Shown piece after piece: positions 27,416 to 37,602 of a DNA stretch of 64,000 nt (positions are counted from its first letter, which is position 1; every line of letters starts with the position of its first letter). The DNA comes from Parcubacteria group bacterium. GTDB taxonomy: Bacteria; Patescibacteriota; Patescibacteriia; UBA2169. Location: NCBI GenBank assembly GCA_016181765.1, contig JACOYR010000004.1, forward strand, positions 35,320-99,319. The letters are read 5' to 3'. The position numbers and the translations under genes were made by a program. The notes under the pieces were generated by a model. It did no database searches and was not told the DNA's origin. It was given only the letters and a program-made list of their open reading frames with translations.

Positions 27416-27865
27416 TTAGTCCACACCCATGCACTTGGCGCACCTGCACCCCTTGGGCTTGATGCGGTCATCAAAGTACTCCTTGCCGTAGTCGTACGTG
27501 AGCTCTTCCCCGGGCTTGATGTTCCGCCGGGCATAGACCTTGATGCGCTTTCCGTAGATGTCGGTCTCGCAGTTGGGGCGGCAGGAGTGGTTGATGTACC
27601 GCGCCGCGTTGCGGCGCGAAGAGCCGTCCACGGCCCAGTTGCGGTTTATCTGGAACAGGTACTTGGTATTGCGCTCCTGGGCTTTGGCGTCCGGAAGCAC
27701 TTGGCCCCGGTACTCAATCACAAACTGCCCGCGCCTGATTGCCTCTCGGGCAAACAAGCCCAAGCCCGCCGTGGCGCGGCGCACGGATACTGGCGCGGGC
27801 TTCTGCTTTGGCCTGCCTGCCCGCCGTATCGGCGGGCCGATTTTTTTGGGGGTTGATGAAGCCAT
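27416..27865 (-). CDS. SET-domain protein (putative protein-lysine methyltransferase)
   Basis: 149 aa. RYINHSCRPNCE (SET NHSC motif), ELTYDYG (ELxYDY) and a Cys-rich post-SET CRCAKC. Confidence 0.8.
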   Translation of the reverse strand: MASSTPKKIGPPIRRAGRPKQKPAPVSVRRATAGLGLFAREAIRRGQFVIEYRGQVLPDAKAQERNTKYLFQINRNWAVDGSSRRNAARYINHSCRPNCETDIYGKRIKVYARRNIKPGEELTYDYGKEYFDDRIKPKGCRCAKCMGVD

Positions 27866-28015: not shown

Positions 28016-28882
28016 TCAGATATTTTTATTTCTGATCTGTCGCGCGTTCTTGCCGGTAATTGCGCTGTTTCCGGTTTTTTTCTCTATGGACTTTCGGGCC
28101 GCGCCAGCCACGCTCCCGCCTTCGCGCGCCACGGTTTTATTTTCATCCAAATTTTTCGGTTCTCTTTTTTCCGATATTTCAGTGGTCGCGGTTTCGGCAA
28201 GCATATTCAAAACCAATTCCAAATTAGTCATATTGTCCCGCAGATTTTCTTTTTTCAGCCCTTTGAGATTTTTATACTCCTTGGTGGTCAATCCGGCCCA
28301 TGCCCGGCTTATCTCATCGGTTAGAATTGCAAACTCCAGACCTTGTTTCATGCCCCGTTTTTCCCATTCATCAGTAAGCGCTTTGCGGATTTCAATGCTT
28401 TTGAGGCGCTGATTGACCCACTCCGGGCTGTATCCTTTTTGCAGGTATGTTTTTAAGGCACGATTAATGGCCAATTCGGGATCTGCTGTTTCTTCCAAGC
28501 GCTCATAGCCCACTTGCGCCAGCCAAAGCTTAAATGGTTCGGCATTTGGCGAAGGTATTGACTGGATGAGCCGGAGCATAACCTCTGTATCGGTGGCATC
28601 TGTGGCATAATATTTGCCATCTTTAGCCATAAATTTCAGTTCGTGACATTTTGTCACGGACTGACTACCTTCTTCTTTTAGTCTTTGTTTTAACTTTCTC
28701 CAATATGCCCCGGCATCAATACTGTTAGTTAACACTCTCACCACATCAATCACAGAAAAATACCAGAGTTCTTTTTCATCATCCCAGTGGCGGCGAATTT
28801 GATTGCCCTCAAAAAGCGCGATGGATTTATTTTTTGATTGTTTCTTTTCGTTGTTCATATATAATCCGTTGCCATTTTCCAT
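28016..28882 (-). CDS. Bro-N / KilA-N-like DNA-binding domain protein (DinD/antirepressor-like)
   Basis: 288 aa. The N-terminal block IALFEGNQIRRHWDDEKELWYFSVIDVVRVL fits the Bro-N pattern (F.G..IR...D.E.WF...DV...L). The rest is alpha-helical. Confidence 0.55.
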   Translation of the reverse strand: MENGNGLYMNNEKKQSKNKSIALFEGNQIRRHWDDEKELWYFSVIDVVRVLTNSIDAGAYWRKLKQRLKEEGSQSVTKCHELKFMAKDGKYYATDATDTEVMLRLIQSIPSPNAEPFKLWLAQVGYERLEETADPELAINRALKTYLQKGYSPEWVNQRLKSIEIRKALTDEWEKRGMKQGLEFAILTDEISRAWAGLTTKEYKNLKGLKKENLRDNMTNLELVLNMLAETATTEISEKREPKNLDENKTVAREGGSVAGAARKSIEKKTGNSAITGKNARQIRNKNI

Positions 28883-28890
28883 TCTATCTC

Positions 28891-29196
28891 TTATTTGACA
28901 AATTGACTACCAAAAGCCCTGTGCAATATAGATTGCTCCAAAGCCGCCAAATCATCACGGGTTGATTTTTGGTATTCCTTTAGCCGCCGAACCTTCTCGG
29001 CAAGCTGGTGAAATGGGATGGTGAAATGGGGACATGACCCATTTTTGATGACCCATATTTCCCGTTTCTGCGTGACCAGCCGGAAATGACTCAATCGGTT
29101 GTAGTAGCTCTTATAGGAATACGCGATGAACTCGCTTGCATAACTCACCCAACCAAGCCCTTCGCAAAATTTATTTCTTACCCTTGCCGAAAACAA
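28891..29196 (-). pseudogene. remnant of a type I restriction-modification S subunit (HsdS C-terminal fragment)
   Basis: 101 aa ORF whose end LAEKVRRLKEYQKSTRDDLAALEQSILHRAFGSQFVK resembles the conserved C-terminal helix of HsdS (..L..LKQSILQKAF.G..). No complete target-recognition domains and no hsdM or hsdR nearby. Confidence 0.35.
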
Positions 29197-29692
29197 AATC
29201 TAGAGTAGGATCTAATTCTTTTAATAATTTTTTATGTTCTTGGAGAATTTCTTCTTGAATTTTTATTGATTCAGCCATACACCAATCACGTATAAGTTCA
29301 TAATTTTTGTTTTCCTTGCAATCTTTAGCTATCCCCTTTCCTTCAACCTCTTCCTTCATCATGTTTATTGCGAGTATAGAGATACATGCTTTTTTATCAT
29401 CTATGTATTGAGATAGCCCTGTATAACCCACTATTAGGTCGCTAAAGTCATCTCCATGTTTTGAGAATATAATCGCTATTTTAATCGCTTCTTTAATTTC
29501 GTCTTTTGAATAAGGCAATATAGAAATTGGCGCTCCAAAAACCATATAAGCTGATTTTTCCATTATCTTCCCATAATCATTGATTATTTTTTCAGCTTCT
29601 TTGACATCCATAGAGGGGAGAAAAAAGGTTTCAGGAATTGTTTTTATTGAGGGAACGATGACCTTGGTGGCGGTGATGGTGGGTGGATTCAT
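29171..29692 (-). CDS. hypothetical protein (AT-rich island)
   Basis: About 173 aa from MNPPTIT. No recognisable domain. Codon usage matches the AT-rich island. Confidence 0.45.
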   Translation of the reverse strand: MNPPTITATKVIVPSIKTIPETFFLPSMDVKEAEKIINDYGKIMEKSAYMVFGAPISILPYSKDEIKEAIKIAIIFSKHGDDFSDLIVGYTGLSQYIDDKKACISILAINMMKEEVEGKGIAKDCKENKNYELIRDWCMAESIKIQEEILQEHKKLLKELDPTLDFVFGKGKK

Positions 29693-29705
29693 GTTGATAT
29701 AAGGC

Positions 29706-31043
29706 TCATCTAAACAAACTTTTGAACCAACTTTGAATTCTCGAAAAGAAAATAAAATTAAGTTTTGACTCCGTCGTTTTCTCATTGCTGGTTTCAAAAT
29801 CAGTAATAATATCTTCTACGACAAATTGATTAGTTGTATTTATTTCTTCTGCAGTCTGTTCTGGCTCAATCTGGACGCACGAATTACCAACTTCTCTATA
29901 CCCGTCATCACACAGCCACACATCTGTTAGGCTTTCTACAGCATGCGCATGTTCTGGAATTTGTATGCAATATTTTTTATTTAACGAAAGAGCATATCCT
30001 TCATTACAATGGATACTTGCTTCTTTTTCTTCCCTAACCACTTCGCTAGAAAGCACCCTAGCTCCTGTTTCATTCTCTGTAGTTGTAGCCTCTATACCGG
30101 GTTGAGTATTTGTAGATTTATCAATAGATGGCGTAGCTACCACAGGAGTAGTAGGAGTATCTTGTTCTACAGTGGCAGGAGAAGCAAAAATTGGTTCGCG
30201 TTGATTTTGTTTATCACTATTGAATAGATTAACCCTTGAATTAAGATTATTCAACAATTGCTCGTAAGAATTGTCTACTTCCTCTATGCACCTCTCATTT
30301 TCAAAAATATACCCATAGTCACACTCGCATGTTTTCGAAGAAGAATCGTAACTTGAATAATAACCATAATTATCATGGCAGTATGAATCACCATCTACAC
30401 AGGTTTGCCCCCCAAATAAATTCGTATCCAGAACATACCCTCTGCCACACTTACAACTATCGGTTAAAATATCGTGTTCAGCATTCCATCCCAGCAACTC
30501 TTGACAATAATCATCTCGCGACACACACTTCCCGCCATTCAAAATATAGCCATAACTACATTTACACGAACTAGTCAGGGAGTTATAACTTGAATTATAG
30601 CCATACAAATTCCTACAATAGGTATTGCCAGAAACACATTCCTTATCACCAAAAATATTCGTATCCACTACATAGCTATAATTACACTCACATCCACCAG
30701 ACAACGAATCATATGAAGAGTTTAAAGGACACGAAGGCCTAGAAGGAATTGAGGGGGTTAGGAAATCGTAATTCAATGAAGGATATGTGTAATCAGGCGC
30801 TGGGGTGGTATAGCCAGTACCACCATCGCCCCAATGGCTATGTATAGGATCAGATGGTTGTGGTAATCCTTTATTGTTATGACAGTGGTACTCGCCATAA
30901 GACAACCCCCAAGAACTGCAGTTCGTTCTACAAGTATGGCAACCCGAGCCATCAGTGCCCCCGGGATGAGCGAAAGTAGAATCCGATAATCCAAATATGA
31001 CAAAGGTTGCCCCCAGTAGTATGAAAAAAAATCTAAGGCGCAT
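29706..31043 (-). CDS. secreted protein with N-terminal His/Cys-rich module and four tandem ~40 aa Cys-rich repeats
   Basis: 445 aa. Signal peptide MRLRFFFILLGATFVIFGLSDSTFA. N-terminal module HPGGTDGSGCHTCRTNCSSWGLSYGEYHCH. Four repeats of the form C(E/K)CxYGYxL..xxCVxxDxYC. A Thr/Pro-rich linker and an acidic C-terminal domain follow. Confidence 0.6.
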   Translation of the reverse strand: MRLRFFFILLGATFVIFGLSDSTFAHPGGTDGSGCHTCRTNCSSWGLSYGEYHCHNNKGLPQPSDPIHSHWGDGGTGYTTPAPDYTYPSLNYDFLTPSIPSRPSCPLNSSYDSLSGGCECNYSYVVDTNIFGDKECVSGNTYCRNLYGYNSSYNSLTSSCKCSYGYILNGGKCVSRDDYCQELLGWNAEHDILTDSCKCGRGYVLDTNLFGGQTCVDGDSYCHDNYGYYSSYDSSSKTCECDYGYIFENERCIEEVDNSYEQLLNNLNSRVNLFNSDKQNQREPIFASPATVEQDTPTTPVVATPSIDKSTNTQPGIEATTTENETGARVLSSEVVREEKEASIHCNEGYALSLNKKYCIQIPEHAHAVESLTDVWLCDDGYREVGNSCVQIEPEQTAEEINTTNQFVVEDIITDFETSNEKTTESKLNFIFFSRIQSWFKSLFR

Positions 31044-33944: not shown

Positions 33945-34175
33945 TTATGGCAAGCTCTCACATGCCTCACCATCTTTATTCCCATCTAGCCGATGAATAT
34001 CATTACTTACCCCGCCACAGGACTCAAACACACGCTGTGCTTCTGCGCGTGTCTTAAAATCTGAACAGTTATAGGCATTGCTGTCACAAATTGTGTTGTT
34101 GGATGAGCCAGCGCTGCAACCTGTCAACGCCAAACTGGCAAGGAGCAGTAGCAAGATGTAGTGTAGTTGTCGCAT
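33945..34175 (-). CDS. Excalibur (extracellular Ca-binding) domain lipoprotein
   Basis: 76 aa from MRQLHY. Lipobox LTGC. DxDxDGxxCE-type motif LDGNKDGEACE. Near-identical to the C-terminal 55 aa of the adjacent thermonuclease. Confidence 0.6.
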   Translation of the reverse strand: MRQLHYILLLLLASLALTGCSAGSSNNTICDSNAYNCSDFKTRAEAQRVFESCGGVSNDIHRLDGNKDGEACESLP

Positions 34176-34197: not shown

Positions 34198-35091
34198 TTA
34201 AGGTAAACTCTCGCACGCCTCGCCATCGCCATCCGCATCAAGACGATGGATGTCGTTTGCCACGCCGCCACACTGCTCAAACGCGGCCTGGGCTTCTGCG
34301 TGCGTTGTAAAGTTACTGCAGTTGTAAACATTGTTTGAACAATCGTACTGGCCTTGCGCTTGTGGCTCTGTATCTGGTTCTATAGTCGAGGGGGGTGGAG
34401 CGCTTGGTGCTGGCTCCCCTTGCTCTACTTCATCTGCGTCCGCGCACACGCCATCCGCCCACAGACCGCGCTTTGCTACGCGCGCCTCGTCCTCGGCTTG
34501 TTTAAATTGTTCTTGATACTTATATGGCAGGTTGTAGGTGTATTCGTGTCCATACCCCTCGCGTATCATCAAGTCGCTAAAGTTGGCGCCATCTTCAAAA
34601 AAAACGTAACGAAGCAAACGGCTGTACTTGTCGCGCTCGCCCTGGGTTGGATCTGCTTCCAGTCGGACACGATTACCGCTTAATACCTCCTTGGCTTTGT
34701 TGGATGCCTCTATGCCAAAACACTGTACTGGCTTTCGGGGATCAACTGTTTCTGGCGTGTCTATGCCAATGAGGCGTATAGTTTCGCTTGAGCCGTCCAT
34801 GTCAACAGCAATCGTATCCCCGTCAACTACTCTCACAACATCATATAATACTTCATCTGTGCTGGTTGCATTTTTATCCGTGTCATTATGTCCTTCAACT
34901 GGTTCAATAGCATCGTCATCTACGGCTGATTCATTTGAAACACTTGCGCCTTCAGCTTGTTGATTTTGGTCTGAAATATTCTGTGTCGGCGCGCTCGCGG
35001 ATTGACTTTTTGCATTACGAACATTATCTGAAGAAGATGTACATCCGCTTAATATAATAGATAAAATACTTAAAACAACGATCTTCTTCAT
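34198..35091 (-). CDS. thermonuclease (SNase-like) lipoprotein with C-terminal Excalibur domain
   Basis: 297 aa. Lipobox ILSGC. SNase core VDGDTIAV..IRLIGIDTPE..GE..ASNKAKEVL..RLLRYVF..REGYG. The C-terminus is an Excalibur motif LDADGDGEACE. Confidence 0.75.
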   Translation of the reverse strand: MKKIVVLSILSIILSGCTSSSDNVRNAKSQSASAPTQNISDQNQQAEGASVSNESAVDDDAIEPVEGHNDTDKNATSTDEVLYDVVRVVDGDTIAVDMDGSSETIRLIGIDTPETVDPRKPVQCFGIEASNKAKEVLSGNRVRLEADPTQGERDKYSRLLRYVFFEDGANFSDLMIREGYGHEYTYNLPYKYQEQFKQAEDEARVAKRGLWADGVCADADEVEQGEPAPSAPPPSTIEPDTEPQAQGQYDCSNNVYNCSNFTTHAEAQAAFEQCGGVANDIHRLDADGDGEACESLP

Positions 35092-35231: not shown

Positions 35232-36464
35232 TTATTTTCTTGCTATTTTTTCCATAATTTTATGGTCATTTCCGAATCTGCACATCGCATCGCAGTTTCC
35301 ACTAAGATCTGACGATAAGATGTATCGTATGTCCAATCCCTTTTCTTTGACCGATGGTCTGCTGAGTTGGATTTTAATATCTTTTTCTCTTTCATCCGGT
35401 ATCGCAATGTAAAGTTTTGAACTATGTAATGGCAATGACAGTGATAAATCAGCAAGCCGCAAAATACCTGAATAAATTGATGTGCTTTTTTCTACTTCAA
35501 AAGCGCACACAATTATATTCGTGCCTTTTACAAACCAAACAACATCAATCAAACAAATAGTCTTGAATATATCTTGGTTTACATCTAACTCGGGAAACTT
35601 ATTTAAGCTGATGAAAGAAAATTTATTATCCCGATAGGTCTTTGAACGATCATTTGCGGCGGCAATTACGTCATATCCGAGTGCGTGGCCGATCTTAAGT
35701 AATTGATATTGCATCTCTGTATGCAATTCATCTTCGTGTTTTTCATTCTCAACTTTTGAATGGCGTTTATGAAGTTGTGCCAATATTTTTTCCCGATCTT
35801 TTTCTGAAAGTGACGCTCCTTTATCCACTAAAATATTGTTTGCCCCTATTTCGAATAAAAATCCCGCAAATGCACCTAAATCATTTGAAAAATGCCTTAG
35901 AAATTCATTATTTTTTTGAATTATTATCTCTCTCATTTTTAAGTATTCTTTCCAAGAACCCAATTTGATTTTTTCACGAAATAAAGTATTAAAACCTTTT
36001 ACGATTGCCGTATTGCATGGCGGAATAATTGTTGGATGCAGAAAATATAAAATACTACCAACTGCAGGTCCAAGCCCTTTAATATTTTTTTCATTCAGTT
36101 TTATGATTTCCGATATGATTGTTTCTTTGTTTGAGGTATTTAAACAATTTTCTAAAAATTGACCGAAATATTTTTTATTTTCCTGATTTTCATAGATATC
36201 CGGTATTCTTAATTTCGGTTTCCAATAAAATGGATGAGCCGCCCCTTCAAATACTTCTTTTTGTTCAGTAATGCAATTAAGAACAAACTCCAGTGAACTG
36301 CCCTTAAAGTCGTTTGGGAAATGCCCATTTTTTATGTCGTCAATTACCTGAATTACACCTCTTCTTACAGAACGAAAAGCTTTCAGTCTCTCTTCGCTAT
36401 TTACAAACCAAGTATGGTAAACCAAGTCATGGTTGTTTTTATATTGTTTGATAAGCTCGTCCAT
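35232..36464 (-). CDS. putative PD-(D/E)xK-fold nuclease with HhH-like motif (restriction-endonuclease-like)
   Basis: 410 aa and AT-rich. IKGLGPAVGSILYFLHP resembles a helix-hairpin-helix. Near the C-terminus IDVVWF..IIVCAFEVEKS fits the D..(D/E)xK nuclease core. No adjacent methyltransferase. Confidence 0.4.
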   Translation of the reverse strand: MDELIKQYKNNHDLVYHTWFVNSEERLKAFRSVRRGVIQVIDDIKNGHFPNDFKGSSLEFVLNCITEQKEVFEGAAHPFYWKPKLRIPDIYENQENKKYFGQFLENCLNTSNKETIISEIIKLNEKNIKGLGPAVGSILYFLHPTIIPPCNTAIVKGFNTLFREKIKLGSWKEYLKMREIIIQKNNEFLRHFSNDLGAFAGFLFEIGANNILVDKGASLSEKDREKILAQLHKRHSKVENEKHEDELHTEMQYQLLKIGHALGYDVIAAANDRSKTYRDNKFSFISLNKFPELDVNQDIFKTICLIDVVWFVKGTNIIVCAFEVEKSTSIYSGILRLADLSLSLPLHSSKLYIAIPDEREKDIKIQLSRPSVKEKGLDIRYILSSDLSGNCDAMCRFGNDHKIMEKIARK

Positions 36465-36575: not shown

Positions 36576-37265
36576 CTATTTCTTTTGCTTAAAAATAAAT
36601 ATCACAAACAAACCTATAACCACAAAATCAATCGCACCCCACAACGTCTTGTTATACAAATAAATAGGCATGATTGGATTAAACAGAATAGCAACAGCTA
36701 CAAAGCACCAAAACCAAAATCCTTTTTTCCGCAATGCCCGGTATAAGTAGTAGGCGTAGTAAATAGACGAGGCAGTCACAATAATCTTGGTAATAGTATA
36801 AAAACCATACGGCATCGGAAATACTGACAGAAACAGCACTATTGAGCTTACTATGGCGGGCCATCGGTAGAATTCAAGTTTGGAATGAACATGCGCCATA
36901 TGATTTTGCTCTGATTTTATCTTATTTGAGTGTAATAAATCCGTATTACGGCCATTTTCTTCTGTCTTTTCTACACTAGAAACATCACCGCCTAACAAAT
37001 ATATGCCATTTTTATAAACCACGACATCATGGCCAATAATCGTATTTATCTTATAACGATATTGCCTAATATGGTCTTCGGAGTAATCCTTTTCCCTATC
37101 CAAAAAATCGCCAATATCCGTTACTGTACCTTGCTTATTTGCGCATAAAAAAACAAGCACGCGGTAAGCGTTGCCGGTTAAGCGTAACTCCTTATTATGT
37201 TCATCAAAAACTTGCCTGCTATTAGTATCTAAACTAAAAAATTTATGTTTATACAACATATTCAT
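36576..37265 (-). CDS. ToxR/CadC-like membrane-anchored transcriptional regulator (OmpR-type winged HTH + C-terminal TM domain)
   Basis: 229 aa. The N-terminal ~90 aa (..ELRLTGNAYRVLVFLCANKQGTVTD..L..) fit the OmpR/PhoB C-terminal wHTH pattern. The C-terminal half has 3-4 TM helices. Confidence 0.5.
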   Translation of the reverse strand: MNMLYKHKFFSLDTNSRQVFDEHNKELRLTGNAYRVLVFLCANKQGTVTDIGDFLDREKDYSEDHIRQYRYKINTIIGHDVVVYKNGIYLLGGDVSSVEKTEENGRNTDLLHSNKIKSEQNHMAHVHSKLEFYRWPAIVSSIVLFLSVFPMPYGFYTITKIIVTASSIYYAYYLYRALRKKGFWFWCFVAVAILFNPIMPIYLYNKTLWGAIDFVVIGLFVIFIFKQKK

Positions 37266-37427
37266 CTCGTATTGTTGCTGTCAATCTATCATTTTCCAGC
37301 CTAAAAATCAACCCAAAACTCCCGCCTCCTCGGTGGGCAGACGGCTCATCCCAAAACAGCCGATCGGCTCATTTACACCATTTGAGCCGATCGCGGCCCG
37401 GATATGAGCCGATTTACCATCCCCCAA

Positions 37428-37464
37428 CCACCCCCTCGCCCCCTCCTTGGTAAAGGAGGGGGAA
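37428..37464. repeat. GC-hairpin repeat element (island / pilus-operon boundary, copy 1)
   Basis: CCACCCCCTCGCCCCCTCCTT-ggta-AAGGAGGGGGAA. Confidence 0.7.
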
Positions 37465-37543: not shown

Positions 37544-37562
37544 CACAGGCAAAAATATCACC

Positions 37563-37602
37563 ACCCCCTTGCCCCCTCCTTAAAATAAAAGGAGGGGGAA
37601 CG
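37563..37602. repeat. GC-hairpin repeat element (pilB leader, copy 2)
   Basis: CCACCCCCTTGCCCCCTCCTT-aaaataa-AAGGAGGGGGAA. Confidence 0.7.

Follow-up and report, generated by a model that had tools for sequence, protein, structure and literature searches.

A secreted Parcubacteria protein with a YHYH_alt head on an EGF-like stalk, a candidate metal-binding protein of the cell envelope

A conserved histidine right behind the signal peptide serves as a general sign that a protein chelates metal outside the cytoplasm, whatever its fold, and this principle led to the discovery of the anglerases, which are metal-capturing domains that are tethered to membrane permeases (PMC12537917). Similarly, a histidine brace is competent only after the signal peptide has been removed, and most of the bacterial examples serve copper trafficking (PMC10952591). 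The larger YHYH domain of Pfam is predicted to bind Zn2+ via three histidines and one aspartate (PMC7824862). Here we describe a gene from a Parcubacteria group bacterium whose predicted mature product begins with a conserved histidine and a small domain from another family, YHYH_alt. The gene lies on the minus strand at 29706-31043 of a 64,000-nucleotide stretch of contig JACOYR010000004.1, which we call the window; coordinates are those of the window unless another locus is named, and we refer to the gene and its product as the target. The YHYH_alt head is followed by a stalk of four epidermal growth factor (EGF)-like repeats, a flexible linker, and a C-terminal amphipathic tail.

The target is an intact open reading frame (ORF) of 445 amino acids plus a stop codon, with an ATG start, as seen in the ORF list and the translation. 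A homology search with the target gave 206 proteins at E ≤ 1e-3. Nearly all of these are unnamed metagenomic proteins, and the few named ones are from Parcubacteria. The full-length homologs have the whole N-terminal architecture of the target, and more than 200 relatives share its N-to-C layout. The top match (P0001) is 100% identical to the target and is only 272 amino acids long. It begins with MSRDDYCQELL, which corresponds to an internal GTG at 30522-30524 (residue 174 of the 445-residue ORF, inside the second repeat). Because its start was placed at this GTG, the GenBank protein HYT31_02795 (272 amino acids) has no signal peptide, no YHYH_alt head, and two repeats fewer. This start-site call, in an AT-rich island within a GC-rich genome, is probably wrong. 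Surveys that rely on annotations would miss the target, since HYT31_02795 is a shortened protein. The target has no match in PHROGs, and a scan for its promoter and terminator gave results no better than for shuffled sequence.

Residues 1-25 (30969-31043) form a Sec signal peptide, as judged by hydrophobicity, by R2 and R4 in the n-region, and by the conserved alanine at position -1. The n-region is MRLR, the hydrophobic core has 15 residues (FFFILLGATFVIFGL), and the c-region is SDSTFA, which places T at -3 and A at -1. The mean Kyte-Doolittle hydropathy within residues 1-25 is 1.87 over 19 amino acids, and this is the sole segment of the target with transmembrane-grade hydrophobicity. Signal peptidase I is predicted to cleave at TFA|HPG, between A25 and H26. 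The A|H junction is conserved: in an alignment of 93 relatives, alanine is at -1 in 86 of them, and position -3 has V, A, T, S, or I. Among 130 representative proteins with the head, 129 have alanine at -1, and 129 have V, A, T, I, S, or L at -3 (the other has cysteine). Because this pattern fits the signal peptidase I rule, H26 is predicted to be the first residue of the mature protein across the family.

The first 30 residues of the mature protein (residues 26-55, HPGGTDGSGCHTCRTNCSSWGLSYGEYHCH; 30879-30968) contain four cysteines and four histidines and form the core of the head. NCBIfam's model for YHYH_alt (NF033223) aligns to residues 24-55 over model positions 2-25 of 25, with a score of 40.4 bits (E = 2.7e-10), which is above the curated cutoff of 30 bits. 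All of the signature residues of this model (H26, D31, G34, H36, Y52, H53, and H55) are present in the target. Besides A25, the best-conserved columns among the 93 relatives are H26 (87), G28 (87), T30 (85), D31 (80), G34 (89), C35 (86), H36 (85), C38 (87), C42 (91), H53 (85), C54 (89), and H55 (83). Across alignments of 53, 93, and 134 sequences, H26, G28, G34, and H53 are near-invariant, while A25, T30, D31, H36, Y52, and H55 are conserved at about 90% or above. The original prediction, made from the DNA sequence alone, had described a secreted protein with a clear Sec signal peptide and an N-terminal module with four cysteines and four histidines that was suggestive of a metal-binding or YHYH-like domain; the conserved cleavage junction and the NF033223 match support a secreted protein with a YHYH-type, plausibly metal-binding head.

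The cysteines of the head covary in pairs. In variants of the form GGH...YH[Y/F/L]H, both C35 and C54 are missing, and in short forms of the head (HSGGTDxxGCHTNHxTGEYHCH), the insertion with C38 and C42 is absent. Because each pair is lost jointly, we infer that the head contains the disulfides C35-C54 and C38-C42.

The head appears to extend beyond the YHYH_alt core. Residues 56-86 (NNKGLPQPSDPIHSHWGDGGTGYTTPAPDYT; 30786-30878) are kept in the Patescibacteria relatives, and in an AlphaFold2 model they and the core together make up a mini-domain of about 60 amino acids with four strands. For this model we used mature residues 1-79 and 129 sequences. The block means of the predicted local distance difference test (pLDDT) are 85-94 for mature residues 11-60, the predicted template modeling (TM) score is 0.63, and the four short strands are at mature residues 10-12, 27-29, 41-45, and 53-56. 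Since the model is confident over mature residues 11-60, the folded head is about 60 residues (26-86 of the precursor) rather than 30. Foldseek found nothing similar to the confident model in the PDB (best E = 5.7) or in BFVD (best E = 3.8), and a sequence search of the PDB with the head returned only antibody chains with E > 0.4.

The head can stand alone as a unit, since there are precursors of just 53-77 amino acids (P0143, P0152, P0161, and others) that consist of a signal peptide and a YHYH_alt head and nothing else. Some of these stop exactly at ...YHCH, so the predicted secreted product is a 30-residue peptide that runs from histidine to histidine.

To our initial set of relatives we can add a much larger family. 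Using a profile of the signal peptide and the head against 1.84 billion representative proteins (clusters at 50% identity), we found 7,127 clusters at E ≤ 1e-3 and 1,521 clusters at E ≤ 1e-10. We also scanned one genome per GTDB species with a pattern that was independent of the signal peptide, and this confirmed 158 relatives. Most of these are from Patescibacteria, namely Paceibacterota and the Wolfe-, Azam-, Nomura-, Magasanik-, Jorgensen-, Zambryski-, Buchanan-, Falkow-, and Peribacteria. The others are from Firmicutes (Dubosiella muris, Erysipelotrichaceae, Clostridiaceae, and Bacilli) and from one metagenome-assembled genome (MAG) of Aenigmatarchaeota, which belong to DPANN. The head is also found in Brevibacillus, Paenibacillus, and Bacillus, and in RefSeq-annotated Firmicutes it likewise lies directly after the signal peptide. 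In all 79 of the ORFs that we extracted from genomes, the first histidine of the head is 19-48 residues from the start; the head is never internal.

The similarity in name to the larger YHYH domain raises the question of whether the head might be a minimal catalytic zinc site that is delivered to peptidoglycan, which would make the target a cell-wall metallohydrolase. YHYH domains were predicted to be metal-dependent hydrolases that are tied to phage tails (Iyer et al. 2021, PMC7824862). Some relatives of the target carry PG_binding_1 or SH3_3, which are described in Pfam as peptidoglycan-binding and bacterial SH3 domains. Both are common in cell-wall hydrolases. However, with 22-30 residues in its core and about 60 with the extension, the head leaves very little room for the active site of a hydrolase, and no matching fold was found in the PDB or BFVD. 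Also, neither the target nor any of ten diverse head-only proteins matched Pfam's YHYH (PF14240), even at E ≤ 10. Finally, phages essentially do not carry the head: a tblastn search with it gave no match in 50,697 phage records, and IMG/VR has one relative of the head among 2.9 million viral contigs. For this last reason we rejected a role of the YHYH_alt form in phage tails. Taken together, we regard a cell-wall metallohydrolase as very improbable.

In the target, the head is joined by a linker rich in proline, serine, and tyrosine (residues 87-104; 30732-30785; identified by its composition and low pLDDT) to four tandem repeats. With the 4 cysteines of the head, the 16 of the repeats, and 4 in two C-terminal half-repeats, the target has 24 cysteines. 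The repeats match C-x12-16-C-x-C-x2-G-Y-x(n)-C, with exactly four cysteines each, at residues 105-136, 143-173, 180-215, and 222-252. We built a profile from 281 repeats in 93 relatives, and it identifies repeat 1 (residues 105-142; 30618-30731) with an independent E-value of 1.9e-8, repeat 2 (143-179; 30507-30617) with 4.9e-12, repeat 3 (180-221; 30381-30506) with 1.8e-11, and repeat 4 (222-253; 30285-30380) with 9.7e-12. The profile does not match any other ORF in the window. Among the relatives, the number of repeats ranges from 1 to 5. Tandem Repeats Finder detected no repeat in the gene at the DNA level, so the four repeats are old and diverged.

The repeats are EGF-like, as a four-cysteine variant. 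In an AlphaFold2 model of the full-length target, pLDDT is 93-98 over residues 111-250 (block means of 87-96 for residues 101-140, and 96-98, 97-98, and 96-97 for repeats 2, 3, and 4), and each repeat has a short helix and then two β-hairpins. Foldseek's best match for the array in the PDB is Pfs25, which has four tandem EGF domains (E = 4.7e-4, probability 0.98), and other matches are to the EGF arrays of Pfs28, NELL2, megalin, and uromodulin; the global TM-scores of these matches are low because the arrays bend differently. When we compared the repeat profile to the sequences in the PDB, the five best matches were all to EGF-domain proteins and were aligned through C-x-C-x2-G-Y...C (Pfs28, E = 0.005; thrombomodulin, factor Xa, and fibrillin, E = 0.1-0.2). 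Pfam families that were found in the 93 relatives at E < 1e-3 include cEGF (35/93), TIL (19/93), and EGF_MSP1_1 (17/93). Some relatives are above the gathering score, such as P0069 with 40.1 bits for cEGF (cutoff 26.6); the target itself is below it, with 19.8 bits for EGF_MSP1_1 (gathering 27) and 10.5 bits for cEGF (gathering 26.6), and its match to TIL is sub-threshold as well. The repeats do not have the six cysteines of a classical EGF domain (C1-C3, C2-C4, C5-C6). Instead, the spacing of their four cysteines fits C2, C4, C5, and C6, which suggests that the C1-C3 disulfide is the one that is missing. The C-terminal half-repeats lack the first and second cysteines together, which supports a 1-2, 3-4 pairing within each repeat. 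A defensin-like reading of the repeats was rejected, as every match by sequence or fold was of the EGF type.

After the repeats, residues 254-343 (30015-30284) form a second linker, with a short helix at residues 259-274 and then a disordered spacer that is rich in threonine, proline, glutamate, and asparagine (pLDDT of 40-56 over most of it, net charge -9). Residues 344-391 (29871-30014) form a Cys-hairpin module of the form CNEGY...C-IPEHAHAV-...WLCDDGY...C, in which the half-repeats C346-C359 and C378-C389 flank IPEHAHAV. This module was identified by a regular expression and by weak matches to the repeat profile, and Pfam gives a sub-threshold match to EGF_MSP1_1 at residues 361-390. Its block-mean pLDDT is 62-83, and 8 of the 93 relatives have kept it.

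The target ends in an aromatic and basic amphipathic helix (residues 426-445, ..LNFIFFSRIQSWFKSLFR; 29709-29768; modeled as helix over residues 426-444). The last 20 residues have a hydrophobic moment of 0.44 and are below transmembrane-grade hydrophobicity, so we propose that this tail could be an in-plane anchor to the membrane or the envelope. Tails of the type [GS][FW][FW]xK[IL]FxW[FL] end at least 35 of the 79 head-bearing proteins from genomes. The most minimal proteins with this tail (103-180 amino acids) have a signal peptide, head, linker, and tail, and no stalk domain. In 13 of the 79 proteins, which are mostly from Firmicutes, a true transmembrane helix followed by lysines and arginines takes the place of the tail, and other head-bearing relatives end with PG_binding_1, SH3_3, or Excalibur domains. 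Of 134 representative proteins with the head, 21 have a Cadherin-like domain in their middle part and 6 have a G5 domain, both of which occur in extracellular and cell-surface proteins; only one has an EGF-like middle part. All such parts are typical of tethered surface proteins, which is why we read the target as a head, a rigid spacer, a flexible linker, and an envelope anchor. The target has no LPX[TSA]G sorting motif, and its C-terminus is an amphipathic helix with no transmembrane segment.

The original prediction had the four tandem four-cysteine repeats right and called them EGF-like or defensin-like, of which the first term stands. It had them followed by a Thr/Pro-rich linker, which is present, and by an acidic C-terminal domain, in place of which we find the acidic spacer, the Cys-hairpin module, and a basic aromatic tail. 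The half-repeats, the C-terminal helix, and the continuation of the head to about residue 86 are features beyond that prediction.

It had also been suggested that the target is an extracellular adhesin or an interaction protein for host or partner cells, tied to episymbiosis. Under this explanation, the EGF-like array and the head would bind a ligand on the host's surface and help an episymbiont to attach. Pfs25, the best match for the fold of the array, is a Plasmodium surface protein of tandem EGF-like domains; the number of repeats varies; the gene lies in an island that was apparently acquired horizontally (see below); and some homologs adjoin large surface proteins with CLIPPER, VWA, PKD, or LTD domains. 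Also, we saw the EGF-stalk form only in MAGs that are named as Patescibacteria lineages or are unclassified, so a lineage-specific role for this form is conceivable. On the other hand, searches of Pfam and NCBIfam and a check of motifs found no known adhesin domain or sorting signal in the target. The sequences of the repeats are highly conserved, whereas a binding surface that faces a host would be expected to be hypervariable. And the head, which is the most conserved part of the protein, is also found in free-living Firmicutes and in stalk-less tethered proteins. We therefore retain that the target is extracellular and probably at the cell surface, consider an adhesin unlikely, and do not retain the link to episymbiosis: besides lacking adhesin and sorting motifs, the target shares its head with ordinary Firmicutes, and the gene neighborhoods are variable.

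We are left with a head-stalk-anchor protein, and we are fairly confident that the target is a tethered surface protein of this kind. In our model, the Sec system would export it and signal peptidase I would cleave after A25, which leaves H26 at the N-terminus of the mature protein. The first 60 or so mature residues would then fold into the four-stranded domain with the YHYH_alt core, stapled by C35-C54 and C38-C42; these two disulfides would stabilize a domain that is too small for a hydrophobic core. His1, Asp6, His11, His28, and His30 of the mature protein (H26, D31, H36, H53, and H55), together with the free α-amino group, might chelate Cu2+, Zn2+, or Ni2+. The four EGF-like modules, with two disulfides each, would act as a rigid spacer and set the head's distance from the cell surface, and they would be followed by the disordered linker (rich in threonine, proline, and glutamate) and the Cys-hairpin module. 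The C-terminal helix would fix the protein to the surface of the membrane or envelope. The head would do the chemistry, which could be the capture or hand-over of a metal or metal-dependent binding.

Our reasons for suspecting a metal are the conserved histidine after the signal peptide, the precedents from histidine braces, and the predicted Zn2+ site of the larger YHYH domain. The fusions of the head to metal-dependent exoenzymes and the Excalibur (Ca2+-binding) genes beside head genes, both described below, also speak for a metal. This is an argument by analogy, and we see about equal chances that the YHYH_alt head does or does not bind a metal; the same balance applies to the overall model of a secreted, envelope-tethered, metal-binding head on a stalk. 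Several observations weigh against it. Because the head has no detectable similarity to PF14240, the published prediction of zinc binding transfers to it by analogy of the motif only. No metal transporter or regulator is a conserved neighbor in the loci of the homologs. The cysteines may coordinate the metal instead of pairing in disulfides, and the tail may be a signal for docking to a protein or for sorting instead of an anchor in the membrane. Also, a protein from Dubosiella (locus L013) may be lipidated at its N-terminus and carry its head behind a lipobox. If so, the head would begin about 20 residues into the mature chain, which would speak against a free amine on His1 as a strict requirement.

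The genomic context is distinctive in composition. The target is in an island at 28.0-37.3 kb that has a G+C content of about 39%, where the remainder of the window has about 58%; the target itself has 39.2%. The contigs of five of the target's relatives have just 31-35% G+C, and others have up to 50%. The low G+C of the island, together with these low-G+C relatives, suggests that the island was acquired horizontally, perhaps from a lineage of Patescibacteria with low G+C. The island is bordered by a SET-domain gene beside an MraY gene on one side and by a gene for a PilB-type ATPase on the other. We found no integrase, no tRNA, and no convincing att-like direct repeats flanking the island, so we could not show that it is a discrete mobile element. 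The SET-domain gene at the left edge (27416-27865) encodes a bacterial protein of 149 amino acids (Pfam SET, E = 3e-27). At the right border, a C-rich 22-mer (ACCACCCCCTYGCCCCCTCCTT) is present in two copies that are 95% identical (37427-37448 and 37560-37581, 133 nucleotides apart), immediately ahead of the PilB-type gene and at its beginning.

The island consists of nine co-directional genes on the minus strand. In order, these encode a DUF6804 membrane protein, a 410-amino-acid protein with a PD-(D/E)xK-like motif, a lipoprotein with a staphylococcal-type nuclease (SNase) and an Excalibur domain, a small Excalibur-domain lipoprotein, a Zn-ribbon transmembrane protein, a coiled-coil protein with six transmembrane segments, the target, a protein of 173 amino acids, and a Bro-N protein. 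Next to the target, an ORF was listed at 29171-29797 that would overlap its 3' end; most plausibly, this ORF starts at the ATG at 29692, and then there is no overlap. The DUF6804 protein is at the far end of the island (36576-37265; Pfam DUF6804, E = 4.7e-20) and has an extra cytoplasmic N-terminal region of about 130 residues before its three transmembrane helices. Shorter DUF6804 genes are within 2.5 kb of YHYH_alt genes in seven other loci. The 410-residue protein (35232-36464) has no match in Pfam or PHROGs, and its C-terminal motif is IDVVWF...AFEVEKST. It is probably a cytoplasmic PD-(D/E)xK nuclease, a restriction or defense gene that is a passenger in the island. A homolog with 30% identity is directly upstream of an EGF-stalk relative in locus L074 (4844-5893). 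The Bro-N protein (28016-28882) belongs to phrog_15286, a phage family of unknown function (E = 5.8e-117), and its gene is the sole clearly phage-like one in the island.

The neighborhoods of the homologs vary. For instance, locus L001 has a serine-recombinase element with DUF6804 and Zn-ribbon genes, while L006 contains genes for polysaccharides and large surface proteins. We compared the proteins of the island to 88 related loci by BLAST and rejected a shared function of the target with its immediate neighbors: neither the two genes directly upstream (coiled-coil and Zn-ribbon) nor the Bro-N gene are conserved beside the homologs. Genes for a DsbA-like thioredoxin and a VKOR protein are directly upstream of the full-length homolog P0016 (L004, 4594-5722; L005, 4182-5310). 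This suggests that some genomes have a dedicated oxidative-folding pair for the cysteine-rich protein, which would be circumstantial support for disulfides. Homologs of the DsbA or VKOR of L004 were not found in the window.

One recurrent neighbor is Excalibur. ORFs with this domain are present in 10 of the 88 other loci, and all 10 of them adjoin the head gene on the same strand, with gaps of -117 to +27 nucleotides. These loci are L014, L025, L026, L029, L045, L060, L065, L078, L080, and L083; most of them are labelled as Patescibacteria lineages, and L045 and L083 carry EGF-stalk relatives. These Excalibur proteins are small and are anchored in the membrane at their N-terminus, so that they and the head genes form a conserved two-gene cassette. 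In the window, the SNase-Excalibur lipoprotein is at 34198-35091 (Pfam SNase, E = 1.6e-23, and Excalibur), and the small Excalibur lipoprotein is at 33945-34175 (Pfam Excalibur; lipobox LALTGC). With the longer start at 34331 that the ORF finder chose, the latter would run into the nuclease gene; a start at the ATG at 34175 is more plausible. The head is also found in fusion proteins: it is fused to SNase in L014 and to Excalibur in L077. On plasmid pPC03 of Paenibacillus crassostreae (locus L089, 3932-4960), the head is fused to a ComEC-type hydrolase with the metallo-β-lactamase (MBL) fold, and a DUF3006 gene follows. After SNase, this is the second type of metal-dependent exoenzyme with a head.

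These associations would make sense if the head were an accessory for scavenging DNA or nucleotides outside the cell. It would cooperate with Excalibur proteins and secreted nucleases, for instance by providing cations, by holding them in place, or by attaching to nucleic acid at the cell surface. The fusions of the head to SNase, Excalibur, and the MBL hydrolase, the SNase-Excalibur fusion in the window, and the strict adjacency of Excalibur ORFs to head genes all fit, as do the two same-strand Excalibur lipoproteins in the island and the PilB-type ATPase gene that flanks it. But most of the head-bearing proteins have no nuclease partner nearby, and in the island, the target and the Excalibur genes have two unrelated genes between them. 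The head has no signature of binding nucleic acid, and a generic metal-binding or anchoring module would explain the exoenzyme fusions and the adjacency equally well. We consider this explanation to be improbable, a little more so than the adhesin, and we continue to prefer a tethered head that may bind a metal.

In the paper library that we searched, we found no paper that describes or tests the small YHYH_alt head; the sole discussion of YHYH there concerns the larger Pfam domain. The head, and not the repeats, is the most interesting part of the target. Its family has thousands of clusters and bears the hallmark that has been used to find new metalloproteins, which is a conserved histidine right after the signal peptide. 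If the head does bind a metal, then it would be among the smallest such modules known, and this would explain a widespread family of "hypothetical proteins" in Firmicutes and Patescibacteria. More tentatively, we speculate that there is a previously unrecognized class of small metal-capturing modules (22-60 amino acids) with an N-terminal histidine and with interchangeable stalks and anchors, in bacteria and archaea that lack an outer membrane (Patescibacteria, Firmicutes, and DPANN), and sometimes in the form of a free 30-residue peptide. The target would be the EGF-stalked form from Patescibacteria, a "fishing rod" for transition metals that possibly works with Excalibur proteins and secreted nucleases. 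Few surface proteins from bacteria of the candidate phyla radiation have been characterized, and a recurrent architecture of head, disulfide-rich EGF-like stalk, and anchor is now defined for them, with predictions for the head, stalk, and anchor at the level of residues that are open to testing.

How does the target compare to known systems? Sortase-anchored adhesins of the MSCRAMM type have an LPXTG motif, a hydrophobic segment, and a basic tail, and the target does not have this combination. The repeats can be compared to cEGF (PF12662), EGF_MSP1_1 (PF12946), and Pfs25 and Pfs28: half of each repeat, C-x-C-x2-G-Y-x(n)-C, fits the C4-x-C5...C6 part of an EGF domain, and both have two β-hairpins. 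The target's repeats differ by having four cysteines instead of six (C1-C3 is absent), by having a short helix in place of the N-terminal loop, and by being in a bacterium. Excalibur (PF05901), which is an extracellular Ca2+-binding domain, resembles the head in being small, extracytoplasmic, and cysteine-containing, and in being fused to SNase and to membrane anchors. However, its motif DxDxDGxxCE is unrelated, and Excalibur is C-terminal while the head is strictly N-terminal.

The head has the name-giving motif of the larger YHYH domain (PF14240), D...G-H...Y-H-x-H, in common with it, as well as the prediction of metal binding. Besides the lack of detectable sequence similarity, the head is much smaller, is cellular and not viral, and is always at the mature N-terminus. 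The closest relative among curated models is YHYH_alt itself (NF033223). The target shares its signature, H-x-G-x-T-D-x2-G-[CG]-H ... Y-H-x-H, and its place directly after the signal peptide. The target is a long form, with an 8-residue CxxxC insertion (TCRTNCSSWG) that provides the putative second disulfide and with a head that is longer by about 30 residues. So the head belongs to a catalogued family, while the combination of the long-form head, the four-cysteine EGF-like stalk, and the amphipathic tail is in no curated model; with more than 200 relatives, this combination is common in metagenomes of Patescibacteria.

Finally, a number of metalloproteins have a conserved histidine after the cleavage site and act outside of the cytoplasm, as we predict for the target: CopC, YcnI (DUF1775), PCuAC, lytic polysaccharide monooxygenases (LPMOs), and the anglerases Ang-1 and Ang-2. 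These are β-sandwiches, in contrast to the predicted disulfide-stapled mini-domain of about 60 amino acids, which has no match in the PDB. The target also has no fused permease and no linked genes for copper or nickel. The predicted mature target begins with His-Pro and has a conserved aspartate and further histidines. CopC also begins with His-Pro, and it binds Cu(II) through His1, an aspartate, and a histidine. And in the concept of the anglerases, the domain is tethered to the membrane via a linker, as we propose for the head of the target.

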